Of a DNA stretch of 64,000 bases, positions 1,889 to 63,821 are shown in pieces. Under the pieces are notes generated by a model, which saw nothing but the letters and a program-made list of their open reading frames with translations, ran no database searches and had not been told where the DNA came from. A program made the position numbers and the translations under genes. The stretch is taken from IMG/VR virus record IMGVR_UViG_3300020182_000007; one strand, written 5' to 3'. This DNA comes from a virus. Numbering within the stretch: the first letter of the stretch is position 1; each line of letters starts with the position of its first letter.

Positions 1889-3844
1889 CTACGTAGTAAA
1901 ACCATGTTTAAAATGGCTTGCTGTAAGATATAGCTCTGAAATTACATAGTTAACACCATCATTTATACCTGTTGCATCTTTCTGAAAGTTCATGTATACT
2001 AGCCAACTACCTACACCAATTGCCCTAAAAATGAATCTGCCATGTCTGATGTCGGAATTTGTGTCAGATGATACAGCGTGTAGATCAGTTGAGAATACAT
2101 TGCCCGCATTAAGTTCCTTTAGCTGCATTGCAGAATTTGTAGGCACTGTTCCACTTGGTGTTTCAATTTTAAATGAATATTCTATCATGTACTCTCCAGC
2201 TTCCATAAGGTTAAGGGCTCTAAAGTTACCACCATTCAGTACGGTTCGGACGTTGTTACCAAGGCTATCATGGTCAATCCATGAATCGAATATTACATCA
2301 GTATCTCCTGTTACCTCAAGCGGCTCCGTAAGTACCATTATAGTTGGAACTCCCGTTAACTTGTTTATGGTAGACCATTGTGTGTTATAGTCAATACTGT
2401 CTATTTTTTCAAGTATTTGTCCACTAGTTCCTCCTGCCGGAGATCCAGATCCTCCGCTAGTTCCGCTAGTTCCAGGTGTTCCTACACCAACAACCTTAAC
2501 TACGTCAAACGAAAAGTTAATAGGAGTAAAATTAACTGCAGCTCCTGGAGATGTTCTTTTAAAGTAAACTCCTAATGTATCACCTACCGCTAAGTCAACT
2601 AGCTCCGTTATACCAAACGAACCAATTTTACCAGAATCAAACTCGCGTCTAACTTCAGTTGAAGCTATCGGAAGACCATTTAATTCAATTACGCACCAAA
2701 CATCTGTATTATTAGTATCTACTTCTAAAGACAATTGAACATTTATCTGATATACTCCTGCATACCTAATATTAGGAGCAAACGTTGAAGCTGCAGATCC
2801 AGTACCTGCAACATGCTTTAATTCACTTACTTCTCCAAGAGTTTCAGTATTCCAACCTTCATACGTGTTAAGGGCAAGAAGTCTTGGTGCTCCATTTATT
2901 TCAAACATCTGACCATATGCTACGCCGCCTGTTAGGATTCCACTTGTTCCATCAACTCCAGAAGTTCCATCAACTCCAGAAGTTCCATCAACTCCAGAAG
3001 TTCCATCAACTCCAGAAGTTCCATCAACTCCAGAAGTTCCATCAATTCCAGAAGTTCCATCAATTCCAGAAGTTCCATCAATTCCAGAAGTTCCATGAGT
3101 ACCTAAAAAAGTTCCATCAACTCCTGAAGTACCTGAAGTACCATCTTTACCTGAAGTACCTGCAACTCCTGTTTTACCACTTGTTCCATTAGCACCGTCG
3201 CTTCCGTCTGTTCCGCTTGTTCCGCTTGTTCCACTTGATCCAAAAAACTCTCCAGGCTTTCCAGGCTCTCCCTGCTCTCCCTGCTCTCCCTGCTCTCCAT
3301 CAGTACCTGAAGTTCCATGAGTACCTAAAAAAGCTCCATCAATTCCCGGTTCTCCTTGTGCACCATCTGTTCCGCTTGTTCCACTTGATCCAAAAAACTC
3401 TCCAGGTAATCCGGGAGCACCGACAGAACCGTCTGTTCCGCTTGTTCCATCAGTACCGTCGTTTCCAGCAGCACCGTCGCTTCCGTCTGTTCCGCTTGTT
3501 CCATGTGTCCCAAAAAAAGTTCCATCAACTCCTGACGTTCCAGAAGTTCCAGAAGTTCCGTCAGCGTTTGGAATATCTAACGTCCATTCATATGTACCAT
3601 TAGTTTCTGTAAATTTTAGATACTTTTCAACCTGTGTAGATTCAATAAAATTAGCTACTTTATAGTTTTTAATTGTCTCGTCTGAAAGTTCTAAATTGTA
3701 GTCCATTTCATCATGCGACAATGGTCTTCCTAATAATCCCGGAAGAAGTGGCATCCATTGTCCATTTATACCAGTATACATAGATGCTGGTATACCCTTT
3801 TGTTGAAATAAGATAGCGTATTGTTGTAATGTCTTTCTTGCCAT
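1889..3844 (-). CDS. Gly/Thr/Ser-repeat, collagen-like virion fibre or surface protein
   Basis: Long GTSGTSG/GxDGTSG and G-X-Y ([10 protein letters not shown]) tract followed by beta-rich C-terminal domains. Confidence 0.6.
2946..3089. repeat. 8 x 18-bp tandem repeat (gttccatcaa[c/t]tccagaa) encoding (V/I)DGTSG
   Basis: Read directly: five c-variant and three t-variant copies. Confidence 0.95.
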
Positions 3845-4822: not shown

Positions 4823-4851
4823 AAAAAGGACAGCATATTCTGCTGTCCTTT
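4823..4851 (-). terminator. Rho-independent terminator
   Basis: Minus strand AAGGACAGCA-GAATA-TGCTGTCCTT followed by a T run. Confidence 0.85.
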
Positions 4852-4878: not shown

Positions 4879-7029
4879 CTAGTTAATGTACATGTTTAAT
4901 TCATATTTATTTCCCATACCATATATTTGAACGTGTACTGCCTTCTTTTGTTCTTTACCGTTTTTATATAATGCTAGAGTATCTTTCTTAGTCTGTCCAT
5001 CTTTTGGTTTAAAGAATCCATCAACGTATGCATTTCCATACTCTCCATTGTCTAGATCGTAACCCATCTTATTAGCATATTTCTCAACCTCATCAATTGC
5101 AGATGAATATTGATTGTGATAAACTTGAAAATCGCTTTTTGATTCATTCAAGAATTGATCTAGTTTAAGAACATGTTTTAAACTTAATGATTCACTTAAA
5201 CCTTTAGTCCAGCTAGAATCTATTTTATATCCATCTAACCATTCTTGAATTTCAGCAAGAGTACCTCTTTTTATTGTAGTGATTGCATTAGAGTATATGC
5301 TAGCATCTTTCTTCATTACATCAAGTTCCCATCTCTTTTTACCAGAAACATATTGTAAATCATATCCCTTTCCTGTTTTAGGATCTGTATATATTGCTGA
5401 TGTTTTACCTTCAGTAACTACCGATCCATCTACTTTCTGGATAATCCATTCTTTCTTTTTTGCAGCAAATTTCTTAGCTAAATGTATTGGCAAATTATTG
5501 TCTACTACTTTACCTGAATTTTTATTAATAACATTATACCTTTCTATGTCCTGATCAATTGTAGTAACTCCTGATTCACTAAGACCTAATGATTTATTAA
5601 CTAGATCTTCAATAACACTAGAATAATCGTCATTCAAGGCCCATTTAATTGTTTGACCTTCACTTCTTGCTTTTTTGTTTATCCATTTAAGGTGTGCTGC
5701 ATCAGTAAGAAATTCAGAAGCTTCTTTTGCAATTCCTTTTGGATCCTTTTTCCATTCTTCAATCGTAGTACCAAAGTTATTACCTACTGTAGCGCCATTG
5801 GTTCTTTTAAGATTATTGATTCCACCGATCTTAATGTATATGTCATTATTAATAGGCATTGCCTCAAAGAAAACTACATCTCTTTCTTCTGGGTTGTTTT
5901 CACCAGATACTTGATCGATAGCATAAGTACTATGAACTCTCCAAGTAGTTTCGCCTTTTACATTATATGCCGCTGAGAATGTATTTGAACCAAATTCAGA
6001 AGCTTTTAACTTATATGCTTTAGCTTCGGTAACTACAGATTCTGGTAAAGGTTTTGCATCTTCATACTTTAGTTTATTATACCACTGAATTGACAGGATA
6101 TAATTATCTGCAAAACTCTTTAGATCCTTTTCACTCTTAAATGATTGACCACCAAGATTAATATCGTGTCCTTTGTAATATAGGTTATAGTGTGCTCCTC
6201 TTGAATTATCTTTTGTTTTAAGAAAAACTATTTCATCGTTTCCAATGAATTTATTTGGCATTTTACCTTCAGTAACTACTGATTCATCCAGTCCAGCTAG
6301 TTGTTTTATTTTTTTAAGAAACTCACTTGCCTTAGGTCCACCATACTGTTGTAATCTTTGTTGCACTAAATCATAGTTTGATATTACCGCTGATTCATTA
6401 CCTCTTTTAAGTGCATTCTTAATTCCAGTAATTCCGTCTTTTACATCTTTCAAATTTTGACCACTAAGACCGGTTTCTTTATAATTAAATCTAGCTTCAG
6501 TAACTACTGATTCGATTATTACCGATTTAAAATCACCAGGTAATCCTCCGTACCATCCAGACTCTTTATTACTAGGAGTTCCTTCACCATAAATGTTATC
6601 TAGAACTTTAACGTCCATTATAACTTCCCATGACTTAGTCTTAGAATCCCATCCAAAATCTTTTTTAATTGAACCTTTTTCGTCTTTAATAAATTCTACA
6701 AAACCATTATAATCATCTTCGTCTTTAAACGCTAGACCAATAGTATTCTTAGCTTCAGTAACTGCTGATTCGTTTTGAGCATCAGCCCATGCAATTTCCC
6801 AATCATCAATATCAAACTTGTAAAATCCTACTAAATCTGCTATTTTATCATTTGCCGATGGATCGTCTTCTCCTCGTTCCACTTCAGTAACATCATAATA
6901 GTTATTATTAATAAATGTTGCAAGATCTTGTTCAGATGGTCTTCTACCTAATTTAGAAATTACTTTCTTAACAGTGTTGTATTTACCAACATCTTCTCTT
7001 CGTTCCTCTATTGTCTTAATATATTTCAT
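4879..7029 (-). CDS. Predicted internal head polyprotein (about 8 modules separated by ESVVTE[A/G]-like linkers)
   Basis: Linkers ESAVTEA, ESVVTEA, ESVVTEG, ESVVTEA, ESGVTT and GSVVTEG, plus an internal KHVLKLDQFLNES leader-like motif. Confidence 0.7.
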   Translation of the reverse strand: MKYIKTIEERREDVGKYNTVKKVISKLGRRPSEQDLATFINNNYYDVTEVERGEDDPSANDKIADLVGFYKFDIDDWEIAWADAQNESAVTEAKNTIGLAFKDEDDYNGFVEFIKDEKGSIKKDFGWDSKTKSWEVIMDVKVLDNIYGEGTPSNKESGWYGGLPGDFKSVIIESVVTEARFNYKETGLSGQNLKDVKDGITGIKNALKRGNESAVISNYDLVQQRLQQYGGPKASEFLKKIKQLAGLDESVVTEGKMPNKFIGNDEIVFLKTKDNSRGAHYNLYYKGHDINLGGQSFKSEKDLKSFADNYILSIQWYNKLKYEDAKPLPESVVTEAKAYKLKASEFGSNTFSAAYNVKGETTWRVHSTYAIDQVSGENNPEERDVVFFEAMPINNDIYIKIGGINNLKRTNGATVGNNFGTTIEEWKKDPKGIAKEASEFLTDAAHLKWINKKARSEGQTIKWALNDDYSSVIEDLVNKSLGLSESGVTTIDQDIERYNVINKNSGKVVDNNLPIHLAKKFAAKKKEWIIQKVDGSVVTEGKTSAIYTDPKTGKGYDLQYVSGKKRWELDVMKKDASIYSNAITTIKRGTLAEIQEWLDGYKIDSSWTKGLSESLSLKHVLKLDQFLNESKSDFQVYHNQYSSAIDEVEKYANKMGYDLDNGEYGNAYVDGFFKPKDGQTKKDTLALYKNGKEQKKAVHVQIYGMGNKYELNMYIN

Positions 7030-7241
7030 TATATTCCTAATTTTTTATGTAAGACTTCCATAAATCCCTTGTAATTGTGAGACCCGTATTCGTCTTTTAA
7101 TACTTTACCTACTGCTAAAGCAAAATCCTCATATGACATTGAATCGTCGATTTTAATTATTGCTTTATTAATTCCCTTTGCTAATGCGTCTGATTCTTTA
7201 GATTCATTAATAAACTCGTTAAAATCTGTAGTATGTTTCAT
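7029..7241 (-). CDS. Small protein with capsid-targeting-like leader
   Basis: N-terminus MKHTTDFNEFINES. Confidence 0.7.
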   Translation of the reverse strand: MKHTTDFNEFINESKESDALAKGINKAIIKIDDSMSYEDFALAVGKVLKDEYGSHNYKGFMEVLHKKLGI

Positions 7242-7245
7242 ATAT

Positions 7246-7896
7246 TTAGTTATTCATTATGTCTGATAGTGACGCAGCGTTTCCAAATTGATAAGAATCA
7301 TTAGTTAATCCAATAGTGTCGTAATTTGTACCTTCACTATAGTCAAACATTACTCCACCATCTAATGAATTATATTGATCCATCACAAAAAACAACTCAT
7401 ATAATTCTTGGAACATTTTATCTTTAATTTTTGAATCAATCCCACTCCCACATGTTACTGCTATTAAGTAGGTTCTCCTACCACCTGGATTAAAGTTTGC
7501 TCTACCTTGAATTTCTCCGCCAACAGTAGAACTCATTGTACCAGACCATCCACCAGCTGCTCCAGTCGAAGACTGATCAACTTCATATTTTTTATACTTC
7601 TTAATTACTTTAGAAATCTTCTCTGCTAATTTAACAGAATTTCTTCCTCGAAATATATCATAATCGTCTTGTTTGTCATCACCTTGAACCATTAAGGGTT
7701 CTTTATAATTAGGTAATTTACCAGACTTAAGAGCTGCTTCAGCGTTCTTTAAAACCTTTGTATAACTACCGCCCCATTTTTCAACAGCTATTTTGGCAAT
7801 TCTAACCTTGTCTTTTAATTTAGATTTAACACCCGATTTATCAAATGAAATAGATTCTTCGTTGACAAACTCTTCAAATAGTTTTACCTTTTTCAT
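7246..7896 (-). CDS. Protein with capsid-targeting-like leader
   Basis: N-terminus MKKVKLFEEFVNEE. Confidence 0.7.
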   Translation of the reverse strand: MKKVKLFEEFVNEESISFDKSGVKSKLKDKVRIAKIAVEKWGGSYTKVLKNAEAALKSGKLPNYKEPLMVQGDDKQDDYDIFRGRNSVKLAEKISKVIKKYKKYEVDQSSTGAAGGWSGTMSSTVGGEIQGRANFNPGGRRTYLIAVTCGSGIDSKIKDKMFQELYELFFVMDQYNSLDGGVMFDYSEGTNYDTIGLTNDSYQFGNAASLSDIMNN

Positions 7897-7897
7897 A

Positions 7898-8842
7898 CTA
7901 ATTTATTTTCGGGTATTTTTTCTTAAATTCCTTATATATATTTTTATAATTACGGGCGCTCATATGATCTTCAGCAGCTTTAAGTAAATCTTCTAAAGAA
8001 GTCCACTCTGTATTAGCTAATTGGTCCTGAGTTGTTGAAACTTGAGCCATTCTGTCTAGAATTGAATCAATTATTTCAGGAGTTAACTTAGTTTCTTTAC
8101 TCGGTTTATCTATACCATCGGCTCTCTTAAGCGTCCACCAATCAACCTTTTTAGGAATGATATATGTTACAATTCCTTTTTCCTGGTCGTTTCCACTGAT
8201 TCTATTAGGTTGGCCTATATTACTGGTGATATTATCTAAATCTAGATTATCATCAAATCCCTTTAGTACTTTTTTAATTTCTGTAGTTAAATCTTTATTT
8301 GCGTTGTCTGGTTCAGATTTAATAACATACATACCTGAACTATCTGAATCATTATATTGTGCTATACTTTTTAATTTTATAAGTACTTTTTTAATCTCTT
8401 TTCTATATTCTCCTGGTTCTAATCCGTTGTTGTATTCCGGAAACGTTTGAGTTGCTTCCCATACGTTAACAATGTTACTATTAGAAAGAGAATCAGCTTC
8501 TTTTAATTCATGAAAGTTATCATCTACTTGTTTTAAGTATTCATATGCTGATGTTATATGCGATTGAATCCATCCAGGTAAGTCTTTTTCAGTAGTTCCT
8601 ACCTTTTGTTGAATGCTTGATAAAGATTTATACATTGCATTTAATTGACCCTGTGCCATTCCAACTTCGTGGTCTCCATCCTCATTTACTGATTCGCGGA
8701 CTCCATATGTTTGCATGTATTGATCTCGAGTAATTCCAAGACTGTTACAATGGTATTCTATAAAATCCATCGCTCCGTAGTTATCATTTGGTATAAACTG
8801 AGTTATGCCCTTAACAAATTTGTTTCCAAAATATTTTGCCAT
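7898..8842 (-). CDS. Probable head-associated multi-module protein
   Basis: GATATATA motif upstream, internal ESVNE motif, and position within the leader-bearing cluster. Confidence 0.5.
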   Translation of the reverse strand: MAKYFGNKFVKGITQFIPNDNYGAMDFIEYHCNSLGITRDQYMQTYGVRESVNEDGDHEVGMAQGQLNAMYKSLSSIQQKVGTTEKDLPGWIQSHITSAYEYLKQVDDNFHELKEADSLSNSNIVNVWEATQTFPEYNNGLEPGEYRKEIKKVLIKLKSIAQYNDSDSSGMYVIKSEPDNANKDLTTEIKKVLKGFDDNLDLDNITSNIGQPNRISGNDQEKGIVTYIIPKKVDWWTLKRADGIDKPSKETKLTPEIIDSILDRMAQVSTTQDQLANTEWTSLEDLLKAAEDHMSARNYKNIYKEFKKKYPKIN

Positions 8843-8868: not shown

Positions 8869-9348
8869 TTATATATCTAATTGATTTTGAACCTTAGCCC
8901 AATACTTTTCAGTTCTTTTATTTTTTAAACCTCTTGGACCACCATTCCAACAACGAGCTATTTCTTCAAAACCGCCTTCCGGATGATGGTAGTTTTTCCA
9001 AAATAAAAACATTTCAATTGAGCTCTGTCTATCAAATCTATCTTTTAATTTATATCGTTGAGTTGAACCCATTTTTTTTAAAATACGATTTACTTCTCTA
9101 ACCATAACAGGTCTTATTTGTAATACACCAACTGAGGGTTCACCGAGATGTATATCTCCAACTGCAGAATCATTACCTCTAGATTCTACATATATTAATG
9201 CATTTATTAAATCTTTTTCTAGAAGTGGCTGTATTTGCTCGACAGTATCTATGCATTCTGTTTCATAGATAGGTAAAATATCGTTTAATTCGGTACTATT
9301 CATTAACATAGAAGGAAGAAACAATGTCATCATTACAATTCTTTTCAT
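8869..9348 (-). CDS. Lysozyme-like muramidase/transglycosylase (i-type/destabilase-like)
   Basis: ALIYVES, VGVLQI and IARCWNGGP motifs; hydrophobic N-terminus. Confidence 0.7.
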   Translation of the reverse strand: MKRIVMMTLFLPSMLMNSTELNDILPIYETECIDTVEQIQPLLEKDLINALIYVESRGNDSAVGDIHLGEPSVGVLQIRPVMVREVNRILKKMGSTQRYKLKDRFDRQSSIEMFLFWKNYHHPEGGFEEIARCWNGGPRGLKNKRTEKYWAKVQNQLDI

Positions 9349-9562: not shown

Positions 9563-9964
9563 CTAGTATACCATATTAAAATTAGTCTTTAATTCATCGG
9601 CTTCACTAGATTCGTGGTCTTCAACTCCGAAATCAGTCAGCAGCATAGTATACAAGCTGTTCCAATCTTCGTTATCTGCAAAATTATCTAAATGCTTTTG
9701 ATTAGATTTAATATATTTCTTTAAATCGCTTCTTAAGCCTTCAGCAACTACTGATTCATCAAGCCCTAATGCTTTTATTGCAGATGCATGTTCTTTTGAG
9801 GAAACAAAAACAAATGCCTGTCCTTTTTGATTCCAATCAATTTTAGAATCTCTAAGTACATCCATAGCTTTACTTAAATCCATCATATCTGTTATACCCG
9901 CATCTTTAAATGAGAGCATTTTAGCTTCGTTTATAAATTGTTCAAATAATTTAATATGTTTCAT
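9563..9964 (-). CDS. Two-module protein with capsid-targeting-like leader
   Basis: MKHIKLFEQFINEA leader and internal GLDESVVAEG linker. Confidence 0.75.
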   Translation of the reverse strand: MKHIKLFEQFINEAKMLSFKDAGITDMMDLSKAMDVLRDSKIDWNQKGQAFVFVSSKEHASAIKALGLDESVVAEGLRSDLKKYIKSNQKHLDNFADNEDWNSLYTMLLTDFGVEDHESSEADELKTNFNMVY

Positions 9965-10267: not shown

Positions 10268-12175
10268 TTATTGAATTTTAGTAACTTTACTTTCATTTAC
10301 TTCTGAAGCAAATTCTTCGTATACAGTACCTTTAACTTCTTCTGCATCTTTAAATGCTTTAGCAGATTGCTTTATTTTCTTAATAAATTCCTCAATAGTT
10401 TTCATATCGGCTGGTTTATAATCATCACCAGCATCGTGCTTACCAACCATATAATCAACTGAGTTTTTCAATTCCCACATTGCATTTAATTGTTTTGGTA
10501 ATCTAAAGAATTTAGCTTCAGTAACTACTGATTCATTTTCTACAGTATCACTAGCCATTCTAGAAAATGCTTCAAAAACAATAGTAACATCCTTTACCTT
10601 TAAATCATCTTTAACTAATTCGCCAATCTTATTGTATAAATCTGTTAATTCATCTTCAGTGTGGTGTTTATAACCTTTCTTTAGGGTAATATTAGTTCCG
10701 GAATGTTTTGCCATAAAATCATCTTTAGCTTCAGTAACTACTGATTCATTTAAGTTTTTCTTTAAGAATGCTGTTAAGTCTTTATGAATTTTTTGTGAAT
10801 CTGATGCCTTTATTACACCGCGTTCTTCTAAAAAATTTAATATCTCATTACTAAGAGTTACCTCTTTAATAGCTTCAGTAACTACTGATTCTTTTAAGTT
10901 TTTAATAGTCTTTATAATAGTCTTAACATCATCATCTATATTACCATAAACTGGTGATACATTCGTTTTACGATTCCATGTTGCCATGTTAACTACTGAA
11001 CCATCATCATTGATATTATATGAACCTCCAGCGTATTCTCCAGTTATTCTAGGATCTACATCGTCTTGATCTTCAATATCTAAATCAAATGAATCTTCTT
11101 CATAATCAGAACTAACAGTATATTTCATACCATCTAATTTCGTAAGAGCATCTGCAAATTTCTGTGCAACTTTTAGAGTTTCCTTTTTAGAAAGACCAGC
11201 AGGTTTAGCTTCATCTAATCCTTGTTCTTTATTTTGTTCTGTAGCATAAGCTTCAGCTTCTTCCTCAGTTTTAAAACATTCTACTCTAACATCTCCTTCC
11301 CAAACAGCCCATGGAGTTCCTTCTTCATCACATGGCTTAACAATATATTTATCGTTCGGGTCATCGGTATGATGTTCGCTAGTTCCTTTAATTTTTTCTA
11401 TTAAAGAATCCCATGATATCTTACCTTCAGCTACTTCTTTAGCTCCATCTTCACCATCAACCAACTCATCTTCAACTTCTTCAGTCTCTTCAGATCTGTC
11501 TTTAGCCTTAACGTATTTTTTACCATCAGCATCTTTAACTTCTGGTGTAGTATCTTCTAGATCGCTTTCTAGCTCTTCAGCTGGAAGGTTAAGATCACCT
11601 TCAGCTACTTCTTTAGCTCCATCTTCACCATCAACTAGATCATCTTCAACTTCTTCAGTCTCTTCAGATCTGTCTTTAGCCTTAACGTATTTTTTACCGT
11701 CAGCGTCAACTACTTCTGGTGTAGTATCTTCTAGATCGCTTTCTAGCTCTTCAGCTGGAAGGTTAAGATCACCTTCAGCTACTTCTTTAGCTCCATCTTC
11801 GCCATCAACCAACTCATCTTCAACTTCTTCAGTCTCTTCAGATCTGTCTTCAGCCTTAACGTATTTTTTACCATCAGCATCTTTAACTTCTGGTGTAGTA
11901 TCTTCTAGATCGCTTTCTAGCTCTTCAGCTGGAAGGTTAAGATCACTTTCGAAAGCGACAGCTGCTGTTGTTAATGCAACCATAGCATTTATTTTACCTG
12001 TTGTAAAAAAAGTAAGTGCTTCATTTAGGGAAAGAGGTGTATTAACACCTTCTAGCATTTTTTCAATCCTGTTAGTGTTCTTAGTCTCTACAAGATTAAG
12101 AGCCTCTTTAATCACATCGGCGCTATACGTCGGCGAAGAATCCTCTTTTCTATTATTAAAATTGATAAAACTCAT
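10268..12175 (-). CDS. Acidic head polyprotein or scaffold-like protein with 3 x 58-aa repeats and ESVVTEA linkers
   Basis: The likely start is MSFINF at 12175, 28 nt downstream of GATATATA; the track start at 12241 overlaps the upstream gene. Confidence 0.65.
   Translation of the reverse strand: MSFINFNNRKEDSSPTYSADVIKEALNLVETKNTNRIEKMLEGVNTPLSLNEALTFFTTGKINAMVALTTAAVAFESDLNLPAEELESDLEDTTPEVKDADGKKYVKAEDRSEETEEVEDELVDGEDGAKEVAEGDLNLPAEELESDLEDTTPEVVDADGKKYVKAKDRSEETEEVEDDLVDGEDGAKEVAEGDLNLPAEELESDLEDTTPEVKDADGKKYVKAKDRSEETEEVEDELVDGEDGAKEVAEGKISWDSLIEKIKGTSEHHTDDPNDKYIVKPCDEEGTPWAVWEGDVRVECFKTEEEAEAYATEQNKEQGLDEAKPAGLSKKETLKVAQKFADALTKLDGMKYTVSSDYEEDSFDLDIEDQDDVDPRITGEYAGGSYNINDDGSVVNMATWNRKTNVSPVYGNIDDDVKTIIKTIKNLKESVVTEAIKEVTLSNEILNFLEERGVIKASDSQKIHKDLTAFLKKNLNESVVTEAKDDFMAKHSGTNITLKKGYKHHTEDELTDLYNKIGELVKDDLKVKDVTIVFEAFSRMASDTVENESVVTEAKFFRLPKQLNAMWELKNSVDYMVGKHDAGDDYKPADMKTIEEFIKKIKQSAKAFKDAEEVKGTVYEEFASEVNESKVTKIQ
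11423..11944. repeat. 3 x 174-bp near-identical tandem repeat
   Basis: Units begin at 11423, 11597 and 11771 and encode DLNLPAEELESDLEDTTPEV...DGEDGAKEVAEG. Confidence 0.95.
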
Positions 12176-12209
12176 TTGTTGTTTGTTTTTTATTATCTTT
12201 ATTATATAT

Positions 12210-12695
12210 CTAGTTAATACCTGTTGTCTTTTTAATTGCATCTATAAATACATCAGCAGGAACTCTATGTCCTCCAGTGTATTTAGAGTACTTAAAGGTA
12301 CCTACTCCTTCAGTTTCTAAGTATTTTTTAACTGCATATCTATCAATAATTTTGTCAGATTTACCAAAATAAACTGAATTTTTTGTTCCTGTTGAACCAA
12401 TAGAGTCATCGGTATTAGGCTCGAATGTTCTACCAACAACTGCTGGATTAAATAAGAGTGTTGGTATTGATAGTTTAGAACCTATTAAATAAGAAATATA
12501 TCCGCCCATTGAAGAACCCACGATGATATCAGGTTTCATTTTACTAATATCATTTAATAATCTACTAAAGGTTGAATTATCCTTGTAATTTATCGAAGGA
12601 GTATATACTTCATCAAAATTATCGTTTAAAAATATTATTTTAGGATCTTTGGGATCAATTGAGGACTCTAGTCCATGTAAATATGCTATCTTCAT
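12210..12695 (-). CDS. Alpha/beta hydrolase (YqiA-like esterase)
   Basis: YLHGLES, GSSMGG nucleophile elbow, LFNPA and GGH. Confidence 0.85.
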   Translation of the reverse strand: MKIAYLHGLESSIDPKDPKIIFLNDNFDEVYTPSINYKDNSTFSRLLNDISKMKPDIIVGSSMGGYISYLIGSKLSIPTLLFNPAVVGRTFEPNTDDSIGSTGTKNSVYFGKSDKIIDRYAVKKYLETEGVGTFKYSKYTGGHRVPADVFIDAIKKTTGIN

Positions 12696-13637: not shown

Positions 13638-13704
13638 TGTTTTTAGTTAGCTTTTTTTGAGGTTATGCGTGAACGTACATGATTTCACATACTATATATC
13701 TAAT

Positions 13705-16653: not shown

Positions 16654-17457
16654 CTATAATTGTTTATGTTTACATTTTTCAAAGTGATATCTGGTCATTA
16701 ATGTTGCTCCTCCAACTTTACCACAGTGTGGACATGTTACTTTTACCTGAGTACGTCCATGCATACCCTTACTTATGTTGAGTTTATGTTCTTCAGATAA
16801 TTTAACTCCTTTCTTCAAGGCTGATGTTTTAGGCCTCTTTTTACCTTTATTGGCATTAGATATATTCTTAGATGTCTGTGCCTTTAACTTATCTCTCGTA
16901 CCAAATAGCTCAAAGTTCGAGAATAATATCCAACCCTTATATATGTTATAAGATCCTCGTACAACATAACCAAACATCGAAGCTCCAGTACCCCCAACCC
17001 TTTGATTCATCTCATGTTGAGTCGCCTTCCGATATTCTCTAGTATCTATATTGTAGAATTCATATATTGTTTGATTAGCACGTGGATTTTTAAGACCACC
17101 TAATGAGCCCTCTTTAGTTTGTCTATATTCTTTCATAAACTTAGAGTTCTTTACATAGGCTTCATCAGAGATATACCCGCCATTAGCGTTTCGACATACA
17201 TTATATGCAATTGGATCCTGATCTAATTTATAGAGTGATAGAAATCTACCTTCGAATTCGAAAGCATCCTCTCTTGTATTGAATAGCCTTAGAATCTTTC
17301 CTTCGAATGATTCTTTACCATATTTTTTATAAGCTCTTTTGAGTACTTTACCAGAACCTTCATATCCATCAGATATGCCTGAACCATAATAATAGCGTCC
17401 ATTTGCTTTGTTGGTAATTACGTAAAAATAGGGTTGGTTTGTTGGGTTATTGATCAT
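16654..17457 (-). CDS. Free-standing GIY-YIG (Seg-like) homing endonuclease
   Basis: YFYVITNKANGRYYYG...E...YN, NUMOD3-like KLSEEHKLNISKG and a C-terminal CPHC. Confidence 0.85.
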   Translation of the reverse strand: MINNPTNQPYFYVITNKANGRYYYGSGISDGYEGSGKVLKRAYKKYGKESFEGKILRLFNTREDAFEFEGRFLSLYKLDQDPIAYNVCRNANGGYISDEAYVKNSKFMKEYRQTKEGSLGGLKNPRANQTIYEFYNIDTREYRKATQHEMNQRVGGTGASMFGYVVRGSYNIYKGWILFSNFELFGTRDKLKAQTSKNISNANKGKKRPKTSALKKGVKLSEEHKLNISKGMHGRTQVKVTCPHCGKVGGATLMTRYHFEKCKHKQL

Positions 17458-22188: not shown

Positions 22189-25064
22189 ATGTTTTTCTTT
22201 ATTATATCTATTACAAACTCAGGTTCAATCTCTTTAGTACATTCAAACTGTCTTTCAGTGCCTTTATGTGCTGGACACCAATTCCAGTCTCCCTTATTAA
22301 ATACGTCCCATGACCAGCAACTATTACAGGAGGTTTTATTAATAATCCTAATACAATTATCCGTAAATTCGCAAACTTCTGGGGTAAATCCACTAATTAA
22401 GAAAACTTTTGCACCAAGCGCCCAAGCAAACCAGCTCAGTCCACTACTAACTCCAACAAACGCGGTAGAAGCATGAATTAATTGTGCAACATTCTCAAGT
22501 TCTGATTCTGCCTGCTCAACCTTTAAGTCAGTTCCCTCCATACTACAATGGATCCAATGATATTCATCCATCCCTTCTACCAATTCTCTCCAACCCGTTG
22601 GATGATTCCAATATTTAGCACCTGCTGTACTTTTAGTAGCAAATGTAATTATGGGGTCCCTTCTACTTGGTAGTTGATCCCATTTCTGGAATTGTGGAGC
22701 CAATTTAGGTCTGACCTCCTTAAATGGTATACCAAGCCTGTCACTTGCTATTTGTGCTAAGTGTATTTTTCGCCAATCCACTCTGTGTTCTGCACGTCTC
22801 CAAGGTTCTTCAGGACTATAAAATACGCCAAGGTTAATTGTGTATATCTCATTAGGAAATTCATTAACAATCTGAATACCGCGACTGGCGTAGTACTCAG
22901 TGTCAAATAACCAACTCTTATGAGTTTTTACAAACACATTCTTCCAGCCCCAATGGGTTTTAAAATCCTCTAGTTGGCCCATCCATGCTAGTGTGTCTCC
23001 AAGGCTCGAACTGTCAAATTGAACACCAATGGTATTATCCATAGTTTCTAGTTGCCACTCCCATACCAATTTATCGTCCTGTAGTATTTCGACTCTCCAA
23101 GGGGTAAACCAATGTTGAGAGGGCTGATACCATCTGTCTGATTCAATTGAGGTTTCATAAACTATTCTGTCAGTAGTAGTGTCAATAAATCTGGCACGGA
23201 AGTTTCCAGGAGGGAGCTCTCCAGCGTGCAGTTTAAAATAACGCTTAAGTGATATTGATATTCTGGCATTGATACTATTATTTACTTCTGGTACTTTATG
23301 AGTTTCTGAGTATAGTTGAAGCATTTCTTTACGAAAGCGTTCAATGTCGTTGCTTGGTAATATAAAATCTCCTAAATTTTCTCCTTGTTCTATGAGCTCT
23401 CTGAATAATATAGCGGCATTTTCTTTTAGATCATTAGTAAATGGAGTAATGTAAGGAGTAAACATGTCCAAATATTGAGGAAGGTTTCTTGTAAATGTTG
23501 GTAAACGATGCGCAATTGCTTCACGTAAAGAGAGTGGATTGCATTCCAATGTAGAATTAAACATAAATGCATCCGATGTTTGGTAAAAAAGTTCAACGTC
23601 CTTTCTCTCTCCCCAAACAGTAACATTAGATGGTAGGTTTTCCATTAGAGGCCTCCAATAACTACCAAAGTTTCCTGCTTGATTTCCTACAAAATGAAAT
23701 TGAAATGTGTTAGGATAGAGTTCTTCTGCAATTCTTGCTATTTCTACTCCTTCGCCTTGATTTTTTCCTGGTGTCCAAAGGCCTACGTTTAAAATATTGA
23801 TCTTATCAGCAGGTATGCCAAGCTCTAATTTAATCTTAGCACGAACCATTGCTTCTTGTTGAAGATCTTCAATAGGGTATTCTACTACCTCTCCATTTGA
23901 AGTAGTGTCCTTGAAATTATTAATTGGATGATATGGTGTACAATACATATAAGAATTAGGATGCCATACCTTCTTGTCATTGTTCATCCATATATTATGA
24001 CAAGTTTCTATAATCTGATATGATCTATCCTTTCTGTATATTTTATTTAAAGTGTTGGTACTCATCTTATTACCACCGTCGAATGATTCAGGACACTCCT
24101 CGATATGTATGATATCTGGTTTAATTGAATCTATTAGATCAAGTATGCGAGATTCTCGTTGTTCTATACTTATTCCTGTGTTGAGTGATATTAGCCTGTC
24201 TCCTAGTAATTCTTCTAACTTATCTTTTTGAACTACAAAATGATCTGAGTAATTATTAAATTCAACAACATATACTTCAAGATCTGAACAATCGATAAGA
24301 GTCTCTACTCTTTTTAGTAAAAATTGCGGCATGCCTCCAGTAGATAGGTGTGGTGCAATATACATCAACCTTTTATTGGAATTATTAAAATTACGTTCTC
24401 TGTTTTCAATAGTGCTTATTCCGTCCCATTGTCCAGTTGGAGAATCAGAAAAAATGCCAATCTTCTTTTTATCCATAAAATTTTGATTAAGAAAGATGTC
24501 AGCACCGTCCCATTTAGAATTAACATAACAGTCTAGAAGATACTTACGAATCCTTTGAGGGAACATAATCATTTGAATACCAATGATCTTGTTAGTAATT
24601 TCTATATCACCATGTTTCTCTAGAGCAATACTCTGTAACACATTTCCTTCTAATGTATATTTACTACCTAGCGAGAAGTAGTCAATACAAAGCTCTTGGG
24701 TGGCTTCGTATGCTCTGTTTATTTTGTCTACTACTTGATCTGGAGATTCAGTTAACCTAACATCTCCTTCACATAATATTAAAGAATCTATGTCCTTTCC
24801 AAAATTATCAATAGCACCGTCGGCGAATGCTCTAAAACAACCGTAATGTGCCTTATTGATAGGTACCTGATCAAACATTTGCGGTCTTGCAAAGTTTTCT
24901 CTAGGAGGATTATCTTTCCACCTTTCATTCCAGACTTGAACATACTCTATTCCTCTTAATTCGAGTTCTTTGAGTTGTTCTATTGATTTTTCCTGTCTAT
25001 GGAGGTCTAAATCGTCTGATAGTAATAAATGTACTAATCTAATCTTGTACTTAGACTTGATCAT
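22185..25064 (-). CDS. Multidomain glycosyltransferase (GT-A-like, GT4-like and TibC/GT9-like heptosyltransferase domains)
   Basis: CEGD, PHLSTGGMPQ, ECNPLSLREA, SSSLGDTLAW and FVGVSSGLSWFAWALG motifs. Confidence 0.8.
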   Translation of the reverse strand: MIKSKYKIRLVHLLLSDDLDLHRQEKSIEQLKELELRGIEYVQVWNERWKDNPPRENFARPQMFDQVPINKAHYGCFRAFADGAIDNFGKDIDSLILCEGDVRLTESPDQVVDKINRAYEATQELCIDYFSLGSKYTLEGNVLQSIALEKHGDIEITNKIIGIQMIMFPQRIRKYLLDCYVNSKWDGADIFLNQNFMDKKKIGIFSDSPTGQWDGISTIENRERNFNNSNKRLMYIAPHLSTGGMPQFLLKRVETLIDCSDLEVYVVEFNNYSDHFVVQKDKLEELLGDRLISLNTGISIEQRESRILDLIDSIKPDIIHIEECPESFDGGNKMSTNTLNKIYRKDRSYQIIETCHNIWMNNDKKVWHPNSYMYCTPYHPINNFKDTTSNGEVVEYPIEDLQQEAMVRAKIKLELGIPADKINILNVGLWTPGKNQGEGVEIARIAEELYPNTFQFHFVGNQAGNFGSYWRPLMENLPSNVTVWGERKDVELFYQTSDAFMFNSTLECNPLSLREAIAHRLPTFTRNLPQYLDMFTPYITPFTNDLKENAAILFRELIEQGENLGDFILPSNDIERFRKEMLQLYSETHKVPEVNNSINARISISLKRYFKLHAGELPPGNFRARFIDTTTDRIVYETSIESDRWYQPSQHWFTPWRVEILQDDKLVWEWQLETMDNTIGVQFDSSSLGDTLAWMGQLEDFKTHWGWKNVFVKTHKSWLFDTEYYASRGIQIVNEFPNEIYTINLGVFYSPEEPWRRAEHRVDWRKIHLAQIASDRLGIPFKEVRPKLAPQFQKWDQLPSRRDPIITFATKSTAGAKYWNHPTGWRELVEGMDEYHWIHCSMEGTDLKVEQAESELENVAQLIHASTAFVGVSSGLSWFAWALGAKVFLISGFTPEVCEFTDNCIRIINKTSCNSCWSWDVFNKGDWNWCPAHKGTERQFECTKEIEPEFVIDIIKKNI

Positions 25065-25453
25065 TAGTATTCAGAATATGACTTCTCCTCAATTAGATTA
25101 GAATTAGTCAATTTATTGATTTCTCTTTTAACTTGAGATCTTTCGTCGTTAAAGTGATATACCGATCTTGCTAGTTCTATAAAATCTTCTCCAAAAGATT
25201 CAGACACCTCACATTTTCTAATTAGATCTTCAACATTCCACAGAGTAATGTTGATGTTATGTAAATCAGAGTATAATGATTTAAGATTTTCTGCATTGGA
25301 GCAGTTTGAATAGATTGTGTCAACTTTCGGGGTCAACACTGAAAATTCATTACGTACGTTTTTTAATTTTGTATCGTTTTTTATTTTTAACATTTTAATG
25401 TCTAAGATAGAATACTTATCTAAGATTTCACCAGCTGATACATTTATTTTCAT
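25064..25453 (-). CDS. Glycosyltransferase-associated protein (DUF6165-like)
   Basis: GEILDKYSILDIK...LWNVED...ARSVY..NDERS.VKREIN. Confidence 0.7.
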   Translation of the reverse strand: MKINVSAGEILDKYSILDIKMLKIKNDTKLKNVRNEFSVLTPKVDTIYSNCSNAENLKSLYSDLHNINITLWNVEDLIRKCEVSESFGEDFIELARSVYHFNDERSQVKREINKLTNSNLIEEKSYSEY

Positions 25454-25458
25454 ATCTA

Positions 25459-25668
25459 TTATTTAGAGGTTTCATTATTTACATAATTACTCAAAAACTC
25501 TCCTGCGGATGCAACTAAAACAGCATCTCTAACTGTTAATGCTCCTGCTCCTTGTGCTGCATTTGCTGCACTTAGTAAAATATTTACTGAACCTGGTAAA
25601 TTCATACCCTTTATGTCATCGAAAGGAGATGTTACTTGTTTTTTGTCTTCTTGTACTACTTCATTCAT
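25459..25668 (-). CDS. Hypothetical protein
   Basis: 69-aa ORF. Confidence 0.55.
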   Translation of the reverse strand: MNEVVQEDKKQVTSPFDDIKGMNLPGSVNILLSAANAAQGAGALTVRDAVLVASAGEFLSNYVNNETSK

Positions 25669-25716
25669 AATTTTATTATTTATATTTAATGATTATATAA
25701 ACATTTTAGTAAAAGT

Positions 25717-26646
25717 TTACAATTTAAAAGAATCTAATAGTGCGTTTAATTCTGGCTGAGGAAAAACATCGCTCTTGTCTTTTCTAACGTTTGTATGTGA
25801 CAGTATTCCAGTTATTCCACCGCTCCATGCCTTTTCATTAAATTCATATCTTTCTTCATAGTTCATTTTCGACATGCCATCATGAATACTAATGTCGTGC
25901 TTATCTTTTAAGTGATATATTAAAGCTTCTAGAGATTCTAATTGAGCTTTAGTATATTTGTGGTAGTATTTATGTCCTCTAAAAGGACGTGCTAATTCAC
26001 AAACTTGGGATGAATGAACTTCCTCATTGAACCATGTATAGAACCTATCTCCTCGTTTTGTTAAATATCCCGCTGCATTGATTTCAATTGACAATGAGTG
26101 CTTCGTCATATAACTCGAACCTGTAGGTCCTAGATGATATCCCCAGTATTTATCGTCGATTGCCTGAACTACCCTACCATTCATTTCAAGATCTTTAGTG
26201 CTTGCTTTATTAATATCAACATTAGTCGGTACTCCACCAATACAATAATTAGTTCCTATTCTACCTCTAGAGTCTTTAGCCCAGTTATCAATTGTCTTAA
26301 ATGGGTTATGTCTTCCTGCAGTATGGTGTATAAATATGTACTTTTTTGATGTTTCTTGTTTAATATATTCTCCTTCTGGTAAATGGTATCTTTCGATCCA
26401 TGTTGCCGATGTTAATTCGTCAGTATCAGCAAATGTTTCTTCTGGGTTATGATTTAAAGATTTCCAAGTTAAAGGACCAACAATACCGTCGGGTGACATG
26501 CTATTTGTTCGTTGATATTTAATTACTGCCTGTCTTGTTGCATTGCCAAATATGCCGTCGGCTGGTTTAACAAACAACAATTCTTGTAAAATCCTAACGT
26601 CATCTCCTTGATGTCCTGTCTTTAGTACTAATCTTTTATTTTCCAT
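25717..26646 (-). CDS. Endolysin: peptidoglycan-binding domain plus N-acetylmuramoyl-L-alanine amidase
   Basis: PG_binding_1 motifs (DGIFG, DGIVGPLTW), IHHTAG, and SHTNVRKDKSD. Confidence 0.9.
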   Translation of the reverse strand: MENKRLVLKTGHQGDDVRILQELLFVKPADGIFGNATRQAVIKYQRTNSMSPDGIVGPLTWKSLNHNPEETFADTDELTSATWIERYHLPEGEYIKQETSKKYIFIHHTAGRHNPFKTIDNWAKDSRGRIGTNYCIGGVPTNVDINKASTKDLEMNGRVVQAIDDKYWGYHLGPTGSSYMTKHSLSIEINAAGYLTKRGDRFYTWFNEEVHSSQVCELARPFRGHKYYHKYTKAQLESLEALIYHLKDKHDISIHDGMSKMNYEERYEFNEKAWSGGITGILSHTNVRKDKSDVFPQPELNALLDSFKL

Positions 26647-27050
26647 AAAGTATTTATTTGTTTTTCTATTAATGGCAATAAATCATAAACTTCGTTTTTA
26701 CTTGAAGTAGTATGTTTAAAATCAAGAACATCATTACCTGATGTTTTAGAAGTTAATATTGCTCTAATTATATAATGTGGGGTTTGTATGGCTTTTTTGG
26801 ATTTACATACACTATATTGTTCTCTAGCCTCTCCTATTAAAAAAGTTTTAGTAGTTATTGTAGCAGAAAGAGAATATTCAATATCGTCTAGTTCTAAGAA
26901 ATCTTGTCTCTCTATTACACTATTTGATATGTTATACATTCTGACAAAAACTGAAGGATGTGAATCCCCCAGCATTTTTAAAAAAGTATCTTTTTCTATT
27001 TTATTAGAGATGTATAATTCGCTAAGCTTTATCGGCAGAGTCTTTACCAT
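26628..27050 (-). CDS. Hypothetical protein
   Basis: 140-aa ORF overlapping its neighbours. Confidence 0.5.
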   Translation of the reverse strand: MVKTLPIKLSELYISNKIEKDTFLKMLGDSHPSVFVRMYNISNSVIERQDFLELDDIEYSLSATITTKTFLIGEAREQYSVCKSKKAIQTPHYIIRAILTSKTSGNDVLDFKHTTSSKNEVYDLLPLIEKQINTLWKIKD

Positions 27051-27996
27051 TTCTTTTTTCTTTTACAAAACGTTGGAGTTGCTCCATTGCTAGCTTTCTC
27101 TTTGCTATTTCCATAAGATCACCTTCTTCTTGATTATCTGTGATGTCTTTAACTACAGCACCAACTGAAGTTGGATTATTTTCATAAGAATCTGGCTCTT
27201 CAGATTTGGTAATATCGGACCATGGTTCAATTATTACAGGATCTATTACATCAATATCTGCTAATCCGTCGTTGAGTGTAACATCTAAGTCATGAAAATC
27301 ATCTTTATTAGATTCTACTAGTTCTTCTTTGTAACTTTCAGCAGCGTTTACTAATGCTGCATTTGGAGGATCTAGGACATCTTCTAATTCATATTCTGGA
27401 AAATCATCCTCACCAAACTCATCAAAATCTGACATGTCATTCATTACCCTGTCTAATTCATGATCTTCGTCCCATTCTTTTTCTGGAATAGGATCAGGTT
27501 CGCTTGTATCTTTCGCACCAATACTAGAAAAACTACTGTCTTCTGGTGTAAATTCGCTGTCATCCTGTGGTTTAATATAGTCTACTAATGATTTTATAAA
27601 TCCTAGAGCTACTAGTGGCAGTATTGCTCCTGATACTAAAGAAAGAATTCTTTTCTGGTATAGAGGCTCTTCTTCAATTAAGTTAAATAATTCCGACCAG
27701 CTTTGAAAGTTTTCTAAGTTCGTAAATGCATGGTACATATTACCTTGCATTTGCATTAGTGTAATTGTAATAAATAGAGCCCATACTAGAGTTTTATTCA
27801 TTTTGTCTAAAATAACAAGCGATGCTAGCGAAGCAGCAGCTCCTACTTCAAATCCGATTGCCAATGTAACTGCCAACCAATACGGGTTTGACAATTCGAA
27901 GAAGTTAATTACATGTATTGTAGATACTATACTAACTAATAAGTACAGAGACACAAACGTTCCTATGACAAAATTCTTTACTAGATTATTATTCAT
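27022..27996 (-). CDS. Multi-pass membrane protein with acidic C-terminal tail
   Basis: About four hydrophobic helices followed by a D/E-rich tail; lies near the endolysin. Confidence 0.6.
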   Translation of the reverse strand: MNNNLVKNFVIGTFVSLYLLVSIVSTIHVINFFELSNPYWLAVTLAIGFEVGAAASLASLVILDKMNKTLVWALFITITLMQMQGNMYHAFTNLENFQSWSELFNLIEEEPLYQKRILSLVSGAILPLVALGFIKSLVDYIKPQDDSEFTPEDSSFSSIGAKDTSEPDPIPEKEWDEDHELDRVMNDMSDFDEFGEDDFPEYELEDVLDPPNAALVNAAESYKEELVESNKDDFHDLDVTLNDGLADIDVIDPVIIEPWSDITKSEEPDSYENNPTSVGAVVKDITDNQEEGDLMEIAKRKLAMEQLQRFVKEKRNGKDSADKA

Positions 27997-28270
27997 CTTT
28001 ATTTTTATTTTTATAAAATACCTTATTGACTAAAAGATCTGGATTGTTTAGATCTTCCTTACGGCCTTTACATCCGCAGTCTTCCTTACCCATAGCGCCT
28101 GCTGCCATTTGTGCAAGTTTATCAAGGCGCATTGCTTTTGCAAGCTTTTCAAAGTCGTCTCCAAATCCTTGAGACTTAGTCTCGCTATTCATTAGTCTTC
28201 TTTTTCTTCTAATGCGTTTATTGAAATACGCTCTTTGTCTGATATTTCTTCTATTCTTAAAGTTTTCCAA
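27989..28270 (-). CDS. Small protein with CGC motif (real start probably MNSETK near 28193)
   Basis: EDCGCKGRKEDLN motif. Confidence 0.5.
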   Translation of the reverse strand: MENFKNRRNIRQRAYFNKRIRRKRRLMNSETKSQGFGDDFEKLAKAMRLDKLAQMAAGAMGKEDCGCKGRKEDLNNPDLLVNKVFYKNKNKDE

Positions 28271-45407: not shown

Positions 45408-45439
45408 TGCTTTAATTATTTTTTATAGTCTATATATTT

Positions 45440-47408: not shown

Positions 47409-47499
47409 ATTTCTTGTATTTTGTGCTTTTACTATATATCTTATTTTAGCTTGATAAATTTAGCTTGCTAAATATGTTTCATCCTATTAGTATTTATCA

Positions 47500-60813: not shown

Positions 60814-60846
60814 ATCTTTATGTTTCTTTTATTTTATATATCTTTA

Positions 60847-63747: not shown

Positions 63748-63821
63748 AGTTTTATATTTTTATTTTTTTATATGTTATATATCTAATTAATCTTGCTTGT
63801 TTTAACAAGGTTGCCTAATAA

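Follow-up and report, generated by a model that had tools for sequence, protein, structure and literature searches.

A mosaic polyprotein gene of a T4-type giant phage, with modules joined by a linker conserved as DNA, may encode exchangeable capsid cargo

Results

Layout of the polyprotein gene

The 64,000-nt stretch of viral DNA that we analyzed, hereafter referred to as the window, corresponds to positions 39850-103849, minus strand, of the 148,784-bp IMG/VR record IMGVR_UViG_3300020182_000007. On the minus strand of the window lies a 716-amino-acid (aa) open reading frame (ORF) in which a 9-aa leader is followed by eight dissimilar modules, M1 to M8 (Table 1). We consider it probable that this gene belongs to a T4-type giant phage and specifies a polyprotein of capsid cargo, that its product is cut at the linkers between the modules, and that the linker DNA serves as a recombination joint. 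When the eight modules were compared with one another, no significant mutual similarity was detected. Five of the joints are linkers of the ES(V/A)VTE type; the other two are a decayed linker (ESGVTT) and an internal leader (KHVLKLDQFLNE). ESAVTE, GSVVTE, and ESGVTT are degenerate copies that stand beside perfect ones in the ORF.

A preliminary description of this DNA had recognized about eight unrelated modules, placed the in-frame linkers at approximate positions, reported the same linker in two other genes, and noted the remnant of a leader before the last module. All of these features were found (Table 1), the two other genes being those for a 133-aa and a 657-aa protein. Its depiction of the joint as a repeated 21-bp linker is right in that the joint is repeated, while the joints are actually of the three kinds given above and the conserved DNA unit measures 18-24 bp.

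Conservation of the linker as DNA

A search for the linker 19-mer with up to three mismatches detected nine occurrences in the window, compared with 0.02 expected. The whole record holds 12 copies of the linker DNA, all on the same strand, and 13 copies of the linker peptide in four genes. Among the record's copies, the canonical codons GAA TCA GTA GTT ACT GAA GCT are nearly without exception, against background synonymous usage of 0.31 for TCA, 0.47 for GTA, 0.44 for GTT, 0.46 for ACT, and 0.37 for GCT. Pairwise same-codon identity among the 13 copies was 0.92 as opposed to the 0.456 expected from codon usage, and none of 20,000 codon-usage simulations reached this value, the largest being 0.66. 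N-terminal leaders encoded in the same genome, whose peptide conservation equals that of the linkers, were chosen as the internal control; about a dozen of them yielded 0.63-0.67 versus 0.57 expected, which is not significant.

Codon choice was also determined in a linker-independent sample of loci fetched through M5 alone, which provided 29 distinct linker contexts. The second Val was encoded by GTT in 25 of 25 cases, the first Val by GTA in 16 of 19, Thr by ACT in 13 of 14, and Ser by TCA in 20 of 29. Of the 38 copies that were examined for the second Val, every one had GTT. In IMG/VR, 106 stretches contain the exact 19-mer, and all matches examined are in frame as ESVVTE. ORFs bearing the linker are up to 1,337 aa long with up to nine linkers, and one M5-seeded ORF has 12. 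In 596 Gb of prokaryote genomes, the exact 19-mer was matched four times, in each case singly, by chance, and in an unrelated protein, which gave no clue to the host.

Leaders, linkers, and putative cleavage sites

Free-standing relatives of the modules consist of an N-terminal leader with a single module directly behind it. At least 17 such leader proteins of about 100 aa contain M8, for example MKHLLTNEQFLNE/AK... and MLKFNEFLNE/SK... (the slash marks the boundary). M5 has several free-standing leader-bearing forms (MKNVNTFQEFLNE/AKAYKL...), and M4 and M1 likewise occur free-standing behind leaders in relatives. The M1 core, (K/R)REDVGKYNTV..., was found in 53 distinct contexts, 24 of the leader type and 29 internal, with leaders such as MKKVKLFEQFIAE/ and linkers such as ...ESVVTE/, ...ESQVTE/, and ...ESTVSE/. 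Leader and linker are thus interchangeable before M1, M4, M5, and M8, and this interchange is the main argument that the linkers would be cleaved. The internal leader KHVLKLDQFLNE is the footprint of a fused free-standing gene.

Boundary statistics were compiled from 220 distinct upstream contexts of the seven testable modules, of which 57 were N-terminal leaders and 163 internal. The P1 residue was Glu in 217 of 220, with two of the three exceptions representing one-residue register shifts, and P3 was V, I, L, or M in 215. P1' was mostly A, K, or G, while P2, P4, and P5 varied. The protease gp21 of T4 cuts after L/I-x-E, and the capsid targeting sequence (CTS) corresponds to the first 10 residues of IpIII (PMC9026906). 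At the sequence level, the module boundaries, (V/I/L/M)-x-E, conform to this gp21 rule. As read from the T4 sequences, the leaders are MKTYQEFIAE/A in IpIII and IpII and ...STITE/A in IpI; here, a leader reads MKHIKLFEQFINE/A and the linker SVVTE/A, and the local FINE/A and SVVTE/A resemble the T4 sites. Because ESGVTT has lost the P1 Glu, it would probably remain uncut, leaving M5 and M6 joined.

Exchange of modules among related viruses

A protein search with the polyprotein retrieved 290 matches of similar length and 229 shorter ones; identity reached 95%, but each match was limited to 11-53% of the query. The eight modules, mapped on the 120 best homologs, occurred in 25 distinct orders, including M5-M4, M1-M7-M2, M5-M1, M4-M2-M5, and M4-M3-M2, and none of the homologous proteins reproduced the architecture of the 716-aa gene. 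In nucleotide alignments of M5, homology starts within or at the upstream linker and stops at the downstream linker, and the flanks are unrelated. When the 4 kb around M5 were compared between 16 other contigs and the window, almost nothing else was shared. The M5 family is small, with 31 matching representative clusters among 1.84 billion.

Three contigs carry both M5 and a capsid gene, which permitted a comparison of the two within the same pairs. M5 was 91% identical in amino acids and 92% in nucleotides, and same-codon identity at conserved four- and six-fold residues was 0.85; the corresponding values for the capsid proteins were 71%, 73%, and 0.63. M5 is far more alike than the capsids, and modules therefore transfer between lineages faster than core genes diverge.

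Fusion with a recognizable domain was observed in relatives P0030 and P0120, whose polyproteins of 670-904 aa start with a UPF0227 hydrolase domain. In P0120, the hydrolase is followed by an internal leader (MNRFEEFMNE) and then by M1, and one relative's internal leader behind the UPF0227 hydrolase reads ...NNKIMNRFEEFMNE/KRED. Such internal leaders in the relatives' polyproteins record fusions of once separate genes. UPF0227 is free-standing in the window and fused in relatives, so gene fusion and fission occur at the locus. The window itself has a free-standing gene for a UPF0227 protein (a YqiA-like alpha/beta hydrolase) in its cluster of leader genes (Table 1).

Folds and family searches

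Small domains that fold independently and are unrelated to one another make up the polyprotein. AlphaFold models of M5 (predicted local distance difference test score, pLDDT, 87.8; predicted template modeling score, pTM, 0.86) and M8 (pLDDT 87.3) each display a compact alpha/beta domain, small in the case of M8, with coil termini, and are consistent with a beads-on-a-string arrangement.

Searches of 39 distinct IMG/VR linker polyproteins against Pfam and PHROGs detected only DUF5824 (in two of them), a partial match to a "cytidyltransferase" PHROG, and a few nameless PHROGs. The ESM Atlas provided only a low-confidence model (pLDDT 0.52, pTM 0.23) and no usable neighbors. Structural relatives of M5 (best E value 0.04 with Foldseek against the PDB; best Z score 4.8 in a wide VIA-align search) and of M8 (best E values 0.02 with Foldseek against the PDB and 0.016 against BFVD) were below noise. 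Among the BFVD matches to M8, at rank 40, was A0A6J5LTH6, a 1,134-aa protein of an uncultured member of Caudovirales named Anti-CBASS protein Acb1; this match (E value 0.18; 21% identity across 86 columns) is too weak for any conclusion. That protein may be another long mosaic polyprotein with a known anti-defense domain.

Virion and recombination genes of the record

The record has a G+C content of 33% and a completeness of about 49% according to CheckV. It encodes a portal protein, a prohead protease of the Peptidase_S77 (T4 gp21) type, and a major capsid protein of the Gp23 family, all three about 70 kb distant from the polyprotein gene. The protease was recognized in a 615-aa ORF by PF03420 (52.6 bits; cut-off 27) and by phrog_207, head maturation protease (E value 3e-41). 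Its S77 domain spans only approximately residues 25-160; the long, unassigned extension on the C-terminal side might be a scaffold-like region that has been fused to it. Among GenBank sequences, the T4-like capsid protein is closest to that of an uncultured 462-kb phage (50% identity) and to those of the Prevotella Lak megaphages (41%). Because it begins MATLINE/AEIR, with the same I-N-E/A motif as the leaders, a capsid propeptide, if there is any, would have only seven residues, unlike that of T4 gp23.

A recombinase of the RecA/UvsX family is also encoded in the record, whereas no match to PF00589 or PF00239, the tyrosine and serine recombinase families, was found in the approximately 49% of the genome that the record represents. 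A homolog of one module is labeled as originating from a Polaribacter metagenome-assembled genome, and the capsid protein is Lak-like; these two clues hint at a Bacteroidota host.

The head module contains one linker-bearing gene, which encodes 582 aa with three linker copies and begins some way (about 800 bp) downstream from the capsid gene. This gene was considered as a gp24-like paralog of the capsid gene, and the idea was dropped for lack of similarity to the capsid protein.

Neighboring genes

The polyprotein start is overlapped by the stop codon of the last of three upstream genes (TAATG), and these genes are probably co-transcribed with it. Farther upstream, the listed start of the 657-aa ORF overlaps the UPF0227 gene, and the later methionine of MSFINF... 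may be the true start. The 657-aa protein has three tandem acidic units of about 62 aa (DLNLPAEELESDLEDTTPEV...) before its three ESVVTE-bounded modules.

Several other genes of the window were annotated. A 159-aa protein with a hydrophobic N-terminus and an SLT lytic transglycosylase domain (Pfam E value 1.7e-05) is encoded just upstream of the polyprotein operon; this may be a muralytic enzyme of the virion or one connected with lysis, and a copy with 53% identity lies near M5 in contigs L131 and L132. About 1 kb downstream of the polyprotein gene, beyond two small intervening genes, a 651-aa protein has long collagen-like tracts of G-T-S-G and G-x-D-G repeats and a globular C-terminal part, and is probably a fiber or decoration protein. 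A 267-aa ORF that begins ...YFYVITNKANGRYYYGSG has a GIY-YIG homing-endonuclease-type N-terminus as judged by eye.

The motif AGATATATA(G/A) is on the coding strand in 11 of its 12 copies, about nine of which sit approximately 20-30 nt before start codons. It precedes the first gene of the polyprotein operon and a 966-aa gene, and it may be a phage promoter element, although its total of 12 copies is no excess over the 12.7 expected.

Table 1. Features of the polyprotein gene and its surroundings. Positions refer to the window unless the record is named.
Feature	Position	Strand	Remarks
Terminator-like hairpin and T run	4825..4851	-	Just 3' of the polyprotein ORF
Polyprotein ORF, 716 aa	4879..7029	-	Stop codon 4879-4881; last gene of its transcription unit
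Leader MKYIKTIEE, 9 aa, N-terminal	7003..7029	-	Ends I-E-E; in relatives the same module follows full leaders, e.g., MKKVKLFEQFIAE
Module M1, aa 10-86	6772..7002	-	Core RREDVGKYNTV...
Linker 1, ESAVTE	6754-6771	-	
Module M2, aa 93-172	6514..6753	-	AKNTIGLAF...; in L088 directly behind a leader-like N-terminus
Linker 2, ESVVTE	6496-6513	-	
Module M3, aa 179-248	6286..6495	-	
Linker 3, ESVVTE	6268-6285	-	
Module M4, aa 255-329	6043..6267	-	GKMPNKF...; in P0236 directly behind an N-terminal leader
Linker 4, ESVVTE	6025-6042	-	Codons TCT and ACC deviate from the canonical copy
Module M5, aa 336-484	5578..6024	-	AKAYKLKASEF...; most widespread module
Decayed linker, ESGVTT	5560-5577	-	P1 Glu lost; intact linkers here in relatives
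Module M6, aa 491-534	5428..5559	-	Rare; one homolog found
Linker 6, GSVVTE	5410-5427	-	
Module M7, aa 541-617	5179..5409	-	GKTSAIY... to ...WTKGLSESLSL
Internal leader KHVLKLDQFLNE, aa 618-629	5143..5178	-	Ends L-N-E, then S
Module M8, aa 630-716	4882..5142	-	
Three genes upstream of the polyprotein ORF	7029..8842	-	314 aa; 216 aa (leader MKKVKLFEEFVNE); 70 aa (leader MKHTTDFNEFINE)
133-aa protein	9563..9964	-	Leader MKHIKLFEQFINE, module, linker ESVVAE (9740-9757), second module
657-aa protein	10268..12241	-	Three canonical ESVVTE linkers (10517-10534, 10730-10747, 10874-10891)
651-aa collagen-like protein	1889-3844	-	
SLT-domain protein, 159 aa	8869-9348	-	
UPF0227 protein, free-standing	12210-12695	-	
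267-aa ORF	16654-17457	-	
966-aa gene	60847-63747		
AGATATATA(G/A) motif copies	8869-8878, 12202-12211, 13692-13701, 45430-45439, 47432-47441, 60834-60843, 63775-63784	-	
S77 prohead protease ORF, 615 aa	record 24337-26184 (L010:8337-10184)		PF03420, phrog_207
Gp23-family capsid protein, 461 aa	record 26879-28264 (L010:10879-12264)		

Discussion

A proposed route from polyprotein to cargo

We propose that the polyprotein would be made late and enter the prohead core by means of its leader-type sequences, where the S77 prohead protease would cleave it behind the Glu that closes each intact linker and the internal leader. About seven small proteins would be released, with predicted extents of aa 10-92 for M1, 93-178 for M2, 179-254 for M3, 255-335 for M4, 336-540 for M5 and M6 together, 541-629 for M7, and 630-716 for M8. 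The released proteins would remain with the DNA and would probably be ejected into the host, as are the internal proteins of T4. Packaging, cleavage, ejection, and the timing of expression are all inferred here from sequence.

At the DNA level, the 18-24 bp of identical linker would act as a homology patch through which general recombination of the RecA/UvsX type could join, delete, and swap modules in frame, and each product of an exchange would automatically keep a cleavable junction. Recombination of the T4 type needs only small homology patches of less than 50 bp, as quoted in PMC2839356. Fresh junctions would carry the canonical sequence and older ones would decay to forms such as ESGVTT, GSVVTE, and ESAVTE, with which the mix of perfect and degenerate linkers is in agreement. 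Homology-driven exchange is the most economical account of the linker identity.

A stronger proposal, which we put forward only tentatively and think somewhat more doubtful than not, is that the linker is a selected element with two purposes, a protease site in the protein and a fixed homology patch in the DNA. Its codon invariance would then be kept for evolvability instead of being a mere by-product of recent copying, and marine T4-type phages of different lineages would possess an in-frame cassette system for trading capsid-delivered proteins, in which any recombinant could at once be translated and cleaved.

The preliminary description had suggested that one targeting event loads a string of effectors to be released by cleavage, and that the DNA repeat, conserved beyond the peptide, allows modules to be gained, lost, or shuffled by recombination. 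Its recombination half is upheld by the variable module order, the breakpoints at the linkers, the free-standing forms of M8, and the linker codons, whose same-codon excess has no counterpart in the leaders. Of the three findings that it had listed as refuting it, two were looked for and not obtained: module order is not invariant across relatives, and the linker codons do not drift like the background. Its cleavage half draws on indirect signs in the sequence, namely the S77 protease, the (V/I/L)-x-E boundaries, and the interchange of leader and linker, and may be correct. The label "effector" found no support, as no module matches a known family or fold. An anti-defense or host-takeover role of the modules would be a guess by analogy with T4 Ip1-3 (PMC12373910).

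Observations that weigh against the proposal

A number of observations count against a cleaved and recombining cargo polyprotein. With regard to recombination, some relatives have different linkers (ESVNE, GSTNE) or a leader before the same module, so that exchange within identical DNA need not account for every junction; selection in favor of a cleavable boundary is therefore also at work. The identity of the linker DNA could also be maintained by selection on mRNA or DNA instead of recombination. With regard to cleavage, (V/I/L)-x-E is a short motif, and our counts cover its occurrences at module boundaries. Boundary conservation could be due to any Glu-specific process, and one linker (ESGVTT) has lost its P1 Glu. 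The N-terminal MKYIKTIEE has the length of the T4 CTS and is followed by RRED, and it is without the F..F aromatic pair of the local leader consensus; it appears to be a short and atypical version of the leader. With regard to late expression, neither the T4 late promoter TATAAATA (18 copies versus 14.5 expected) nor the motif AGATATATAG (12 versus 12.7) is enriched in the window. Lastly, Pfam and PHROGs searches with the polyprotein detected no family, no module function was recognizable through Pfam, PHROGs, the ESM Atlas, or the fold searches with M5 and M8, and a tblastn search with the polyprotein matched none of 50,697 GenBank phage records and so revealed no cultured relative.

Alternative explanations

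The protein could instead be a filler of the scaffold or core type, like T4 gp22, gp67, and gp68, which is cut at many sites and whose fragments help to fill the core or to set its size before being expelled or left inert, rather than being delivered as effectors. T4 core proteins do give rise to multiple gp21 fragments (PMC9026906), a linker gene lies close to the capsid gene in the head module, and none of the modules has an enzymatic or anti-defense signature. Nevertheless, we think this explanation unlikely, given that the predicted pieces would be folded domains of 76-205 aa and not short peptides, and that the modules are hypervariable, mobile between phages, and dispensable in relatives, like the T-even internal proteins. 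Core scaffolds, by contrast, are highly conserved (PMC9026906). A further point against a scaffold is that these modules are also encoded by free-standing genes with leaders.

We assign a similarly low probability to the explanation that the linker codons are kept by selection on the nucleic acid, for example as a protein-binding site, an mRNA signal, or a translational pause, with shuffling taking place by other means and being filtered by function. It would account for the second Val codon, which is invariably GTT though neighboring codons vary, and for the non-identical linkers at some relatives' junctions. The linker also contains a 6-bp inverted repeat, TCAGTA-GT-TACTGA, which we considered as a protein-binding site and rejected: such a repeat is expected in 11.5% of synonymous encodings (P = 0.115), and the common ESVVNE variants break it. 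Homology breakpoints coincide with the linker, and no tyrosine or serine recombinase was found in the half-complete record. Selection on nucleic acid is nonetheless compatible with recombination, and both may coexist.

Least probable, and in our judgment quite improbable, is that the protein stays intact as a multi-domain virion or accessory protein in which ESVVTE is a structural inter-domain spacer and its Glu no cleavage site: the beta-prone SVVT could act as a short rigid connector and some polyvalent proteins are packaged unprocessed (PMC5512222), but a mere spacer would have no reason to swap with an N-terminal leader at the same residue before the same module. P1 Glu and P3 V/I/L are also almost invariant while P2, P4, and P5 vary, and the T4 IpI site ...TITE/A is a close match.

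Significance

The internal proteins of T4 are the classic case of proteins injected before gene expression to disarm host defenses. How repertoires of injected proteins diversify is only partly understood, and the locus described here suggests a compact solution: many cargo domains would be made per translation product, the head protease would free each of them, and the junction DNA would permit in-frame exchange within and between lineages. If the cargo proposal is true, abundant marine phages would be a large source of candidates for injected proteins, for each of which the mature N-terminus could be predicted, and the locus would represent a natural design rule for loading T4-type capsids with multiple cargoes.

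Comparison with known systems

The separate parts of the proposed system are known: internal proteins with a CTS that are processed by gp21, multi-site cutting of head proteins, cassettes flanked by promoter/stem-loop elements (PeSLs), and polyvalent proteins. A literature search, which covered part of the journals, retrieved no description of fused cargo domains combined with a repeated, DNA-identical protease-site junction and domain exchange between lineages.

The T-even internal proteins IpI, IpII, and IpIII (and Alt) share two features with the present system, an S77 protease of the T4 type and a short leader at the N-terminus that ends I/V/L-x-E/A. Their bodies are small, mutually unrelated, and hypervariable, with only the leader in common, as here (PMC3012670, PMC12373910). 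Unlike the gene described here, in which up to eight bodies are fused and the site is internal, repeated, and identical in DNA, the T4 proteins are encoded by separate genes with one site each. Moreover, T4 Ip1-3 are proven GmrSD inhibitors, whereas any injected role of the modules is putative.

Polyvalent proteins (Iyer et al., 2017, PMC5512222) are likewise long, mosaic, and multi-domain and are encoded near virion genes; packaging and delivery along with the DNA have been predicted for them, and peptidases process some of them. The polyprotein resembles them in having several distinct domains in one polypeptide and in coming from a record with T4-type virion genes. They differ in having recognizable enzymatic and binding domains and, where processing is known, embedded zincin-like or other peptidases, with no repeated linker described; here, the domains match no such repertoire (MuF, zincin-like peptidase, ART, nucleases), DUF5824 in two of 39 related polyproteins being the only domain found, a separate prohead protease is presumed, and a single linker recurs. 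In the giant phages phiKZ, 201phi2-1, and SPN3US (PMC9026906, PMC5694885, PMC10052503), too, homologs of gp21 process many head proteins, including inner-body and ejection proteins, by cutting behind the Glu of short motifs, in some proteins more than once. Their cuts mostly remove propeptides, however, and neither a single DNA-identical linker nor cassette shuffling has been reported for them.

On the recombination side, the closest likeness is to PeSL shuffling in T4-type phages (PMC2839356, PMC4122927), in which the ORFan cassettes of hyperplastic regions are bordered by short, conserved stretches of DNA that provide homology patches through which phage recombination inserts, deletes, or replaces cassettes. 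PeSL-like elements were observed at the T-even Ip loci by Repoila et al. (1994), as reported in PMC2839356. PeSLs are intergenic elements of about 100 bp, composed of an early promoter and a stem-loop, that flank a cassette and serve as transcription signals, whereas the repeat described here is 18-24 bp long, lies inside the reading frame, and encodes a putative protease site; if the cargo proposal holds, it would be a coding-sequence counterpart to PeSL-type cassette shuffling. Integron cassette arrays also consist of exchangeable units bounded by a repeated recombination site, but here no integrase was found in the half-complete record and there is no attC-like structure, and the units are in-frame protein domains rather than separate ORFs.

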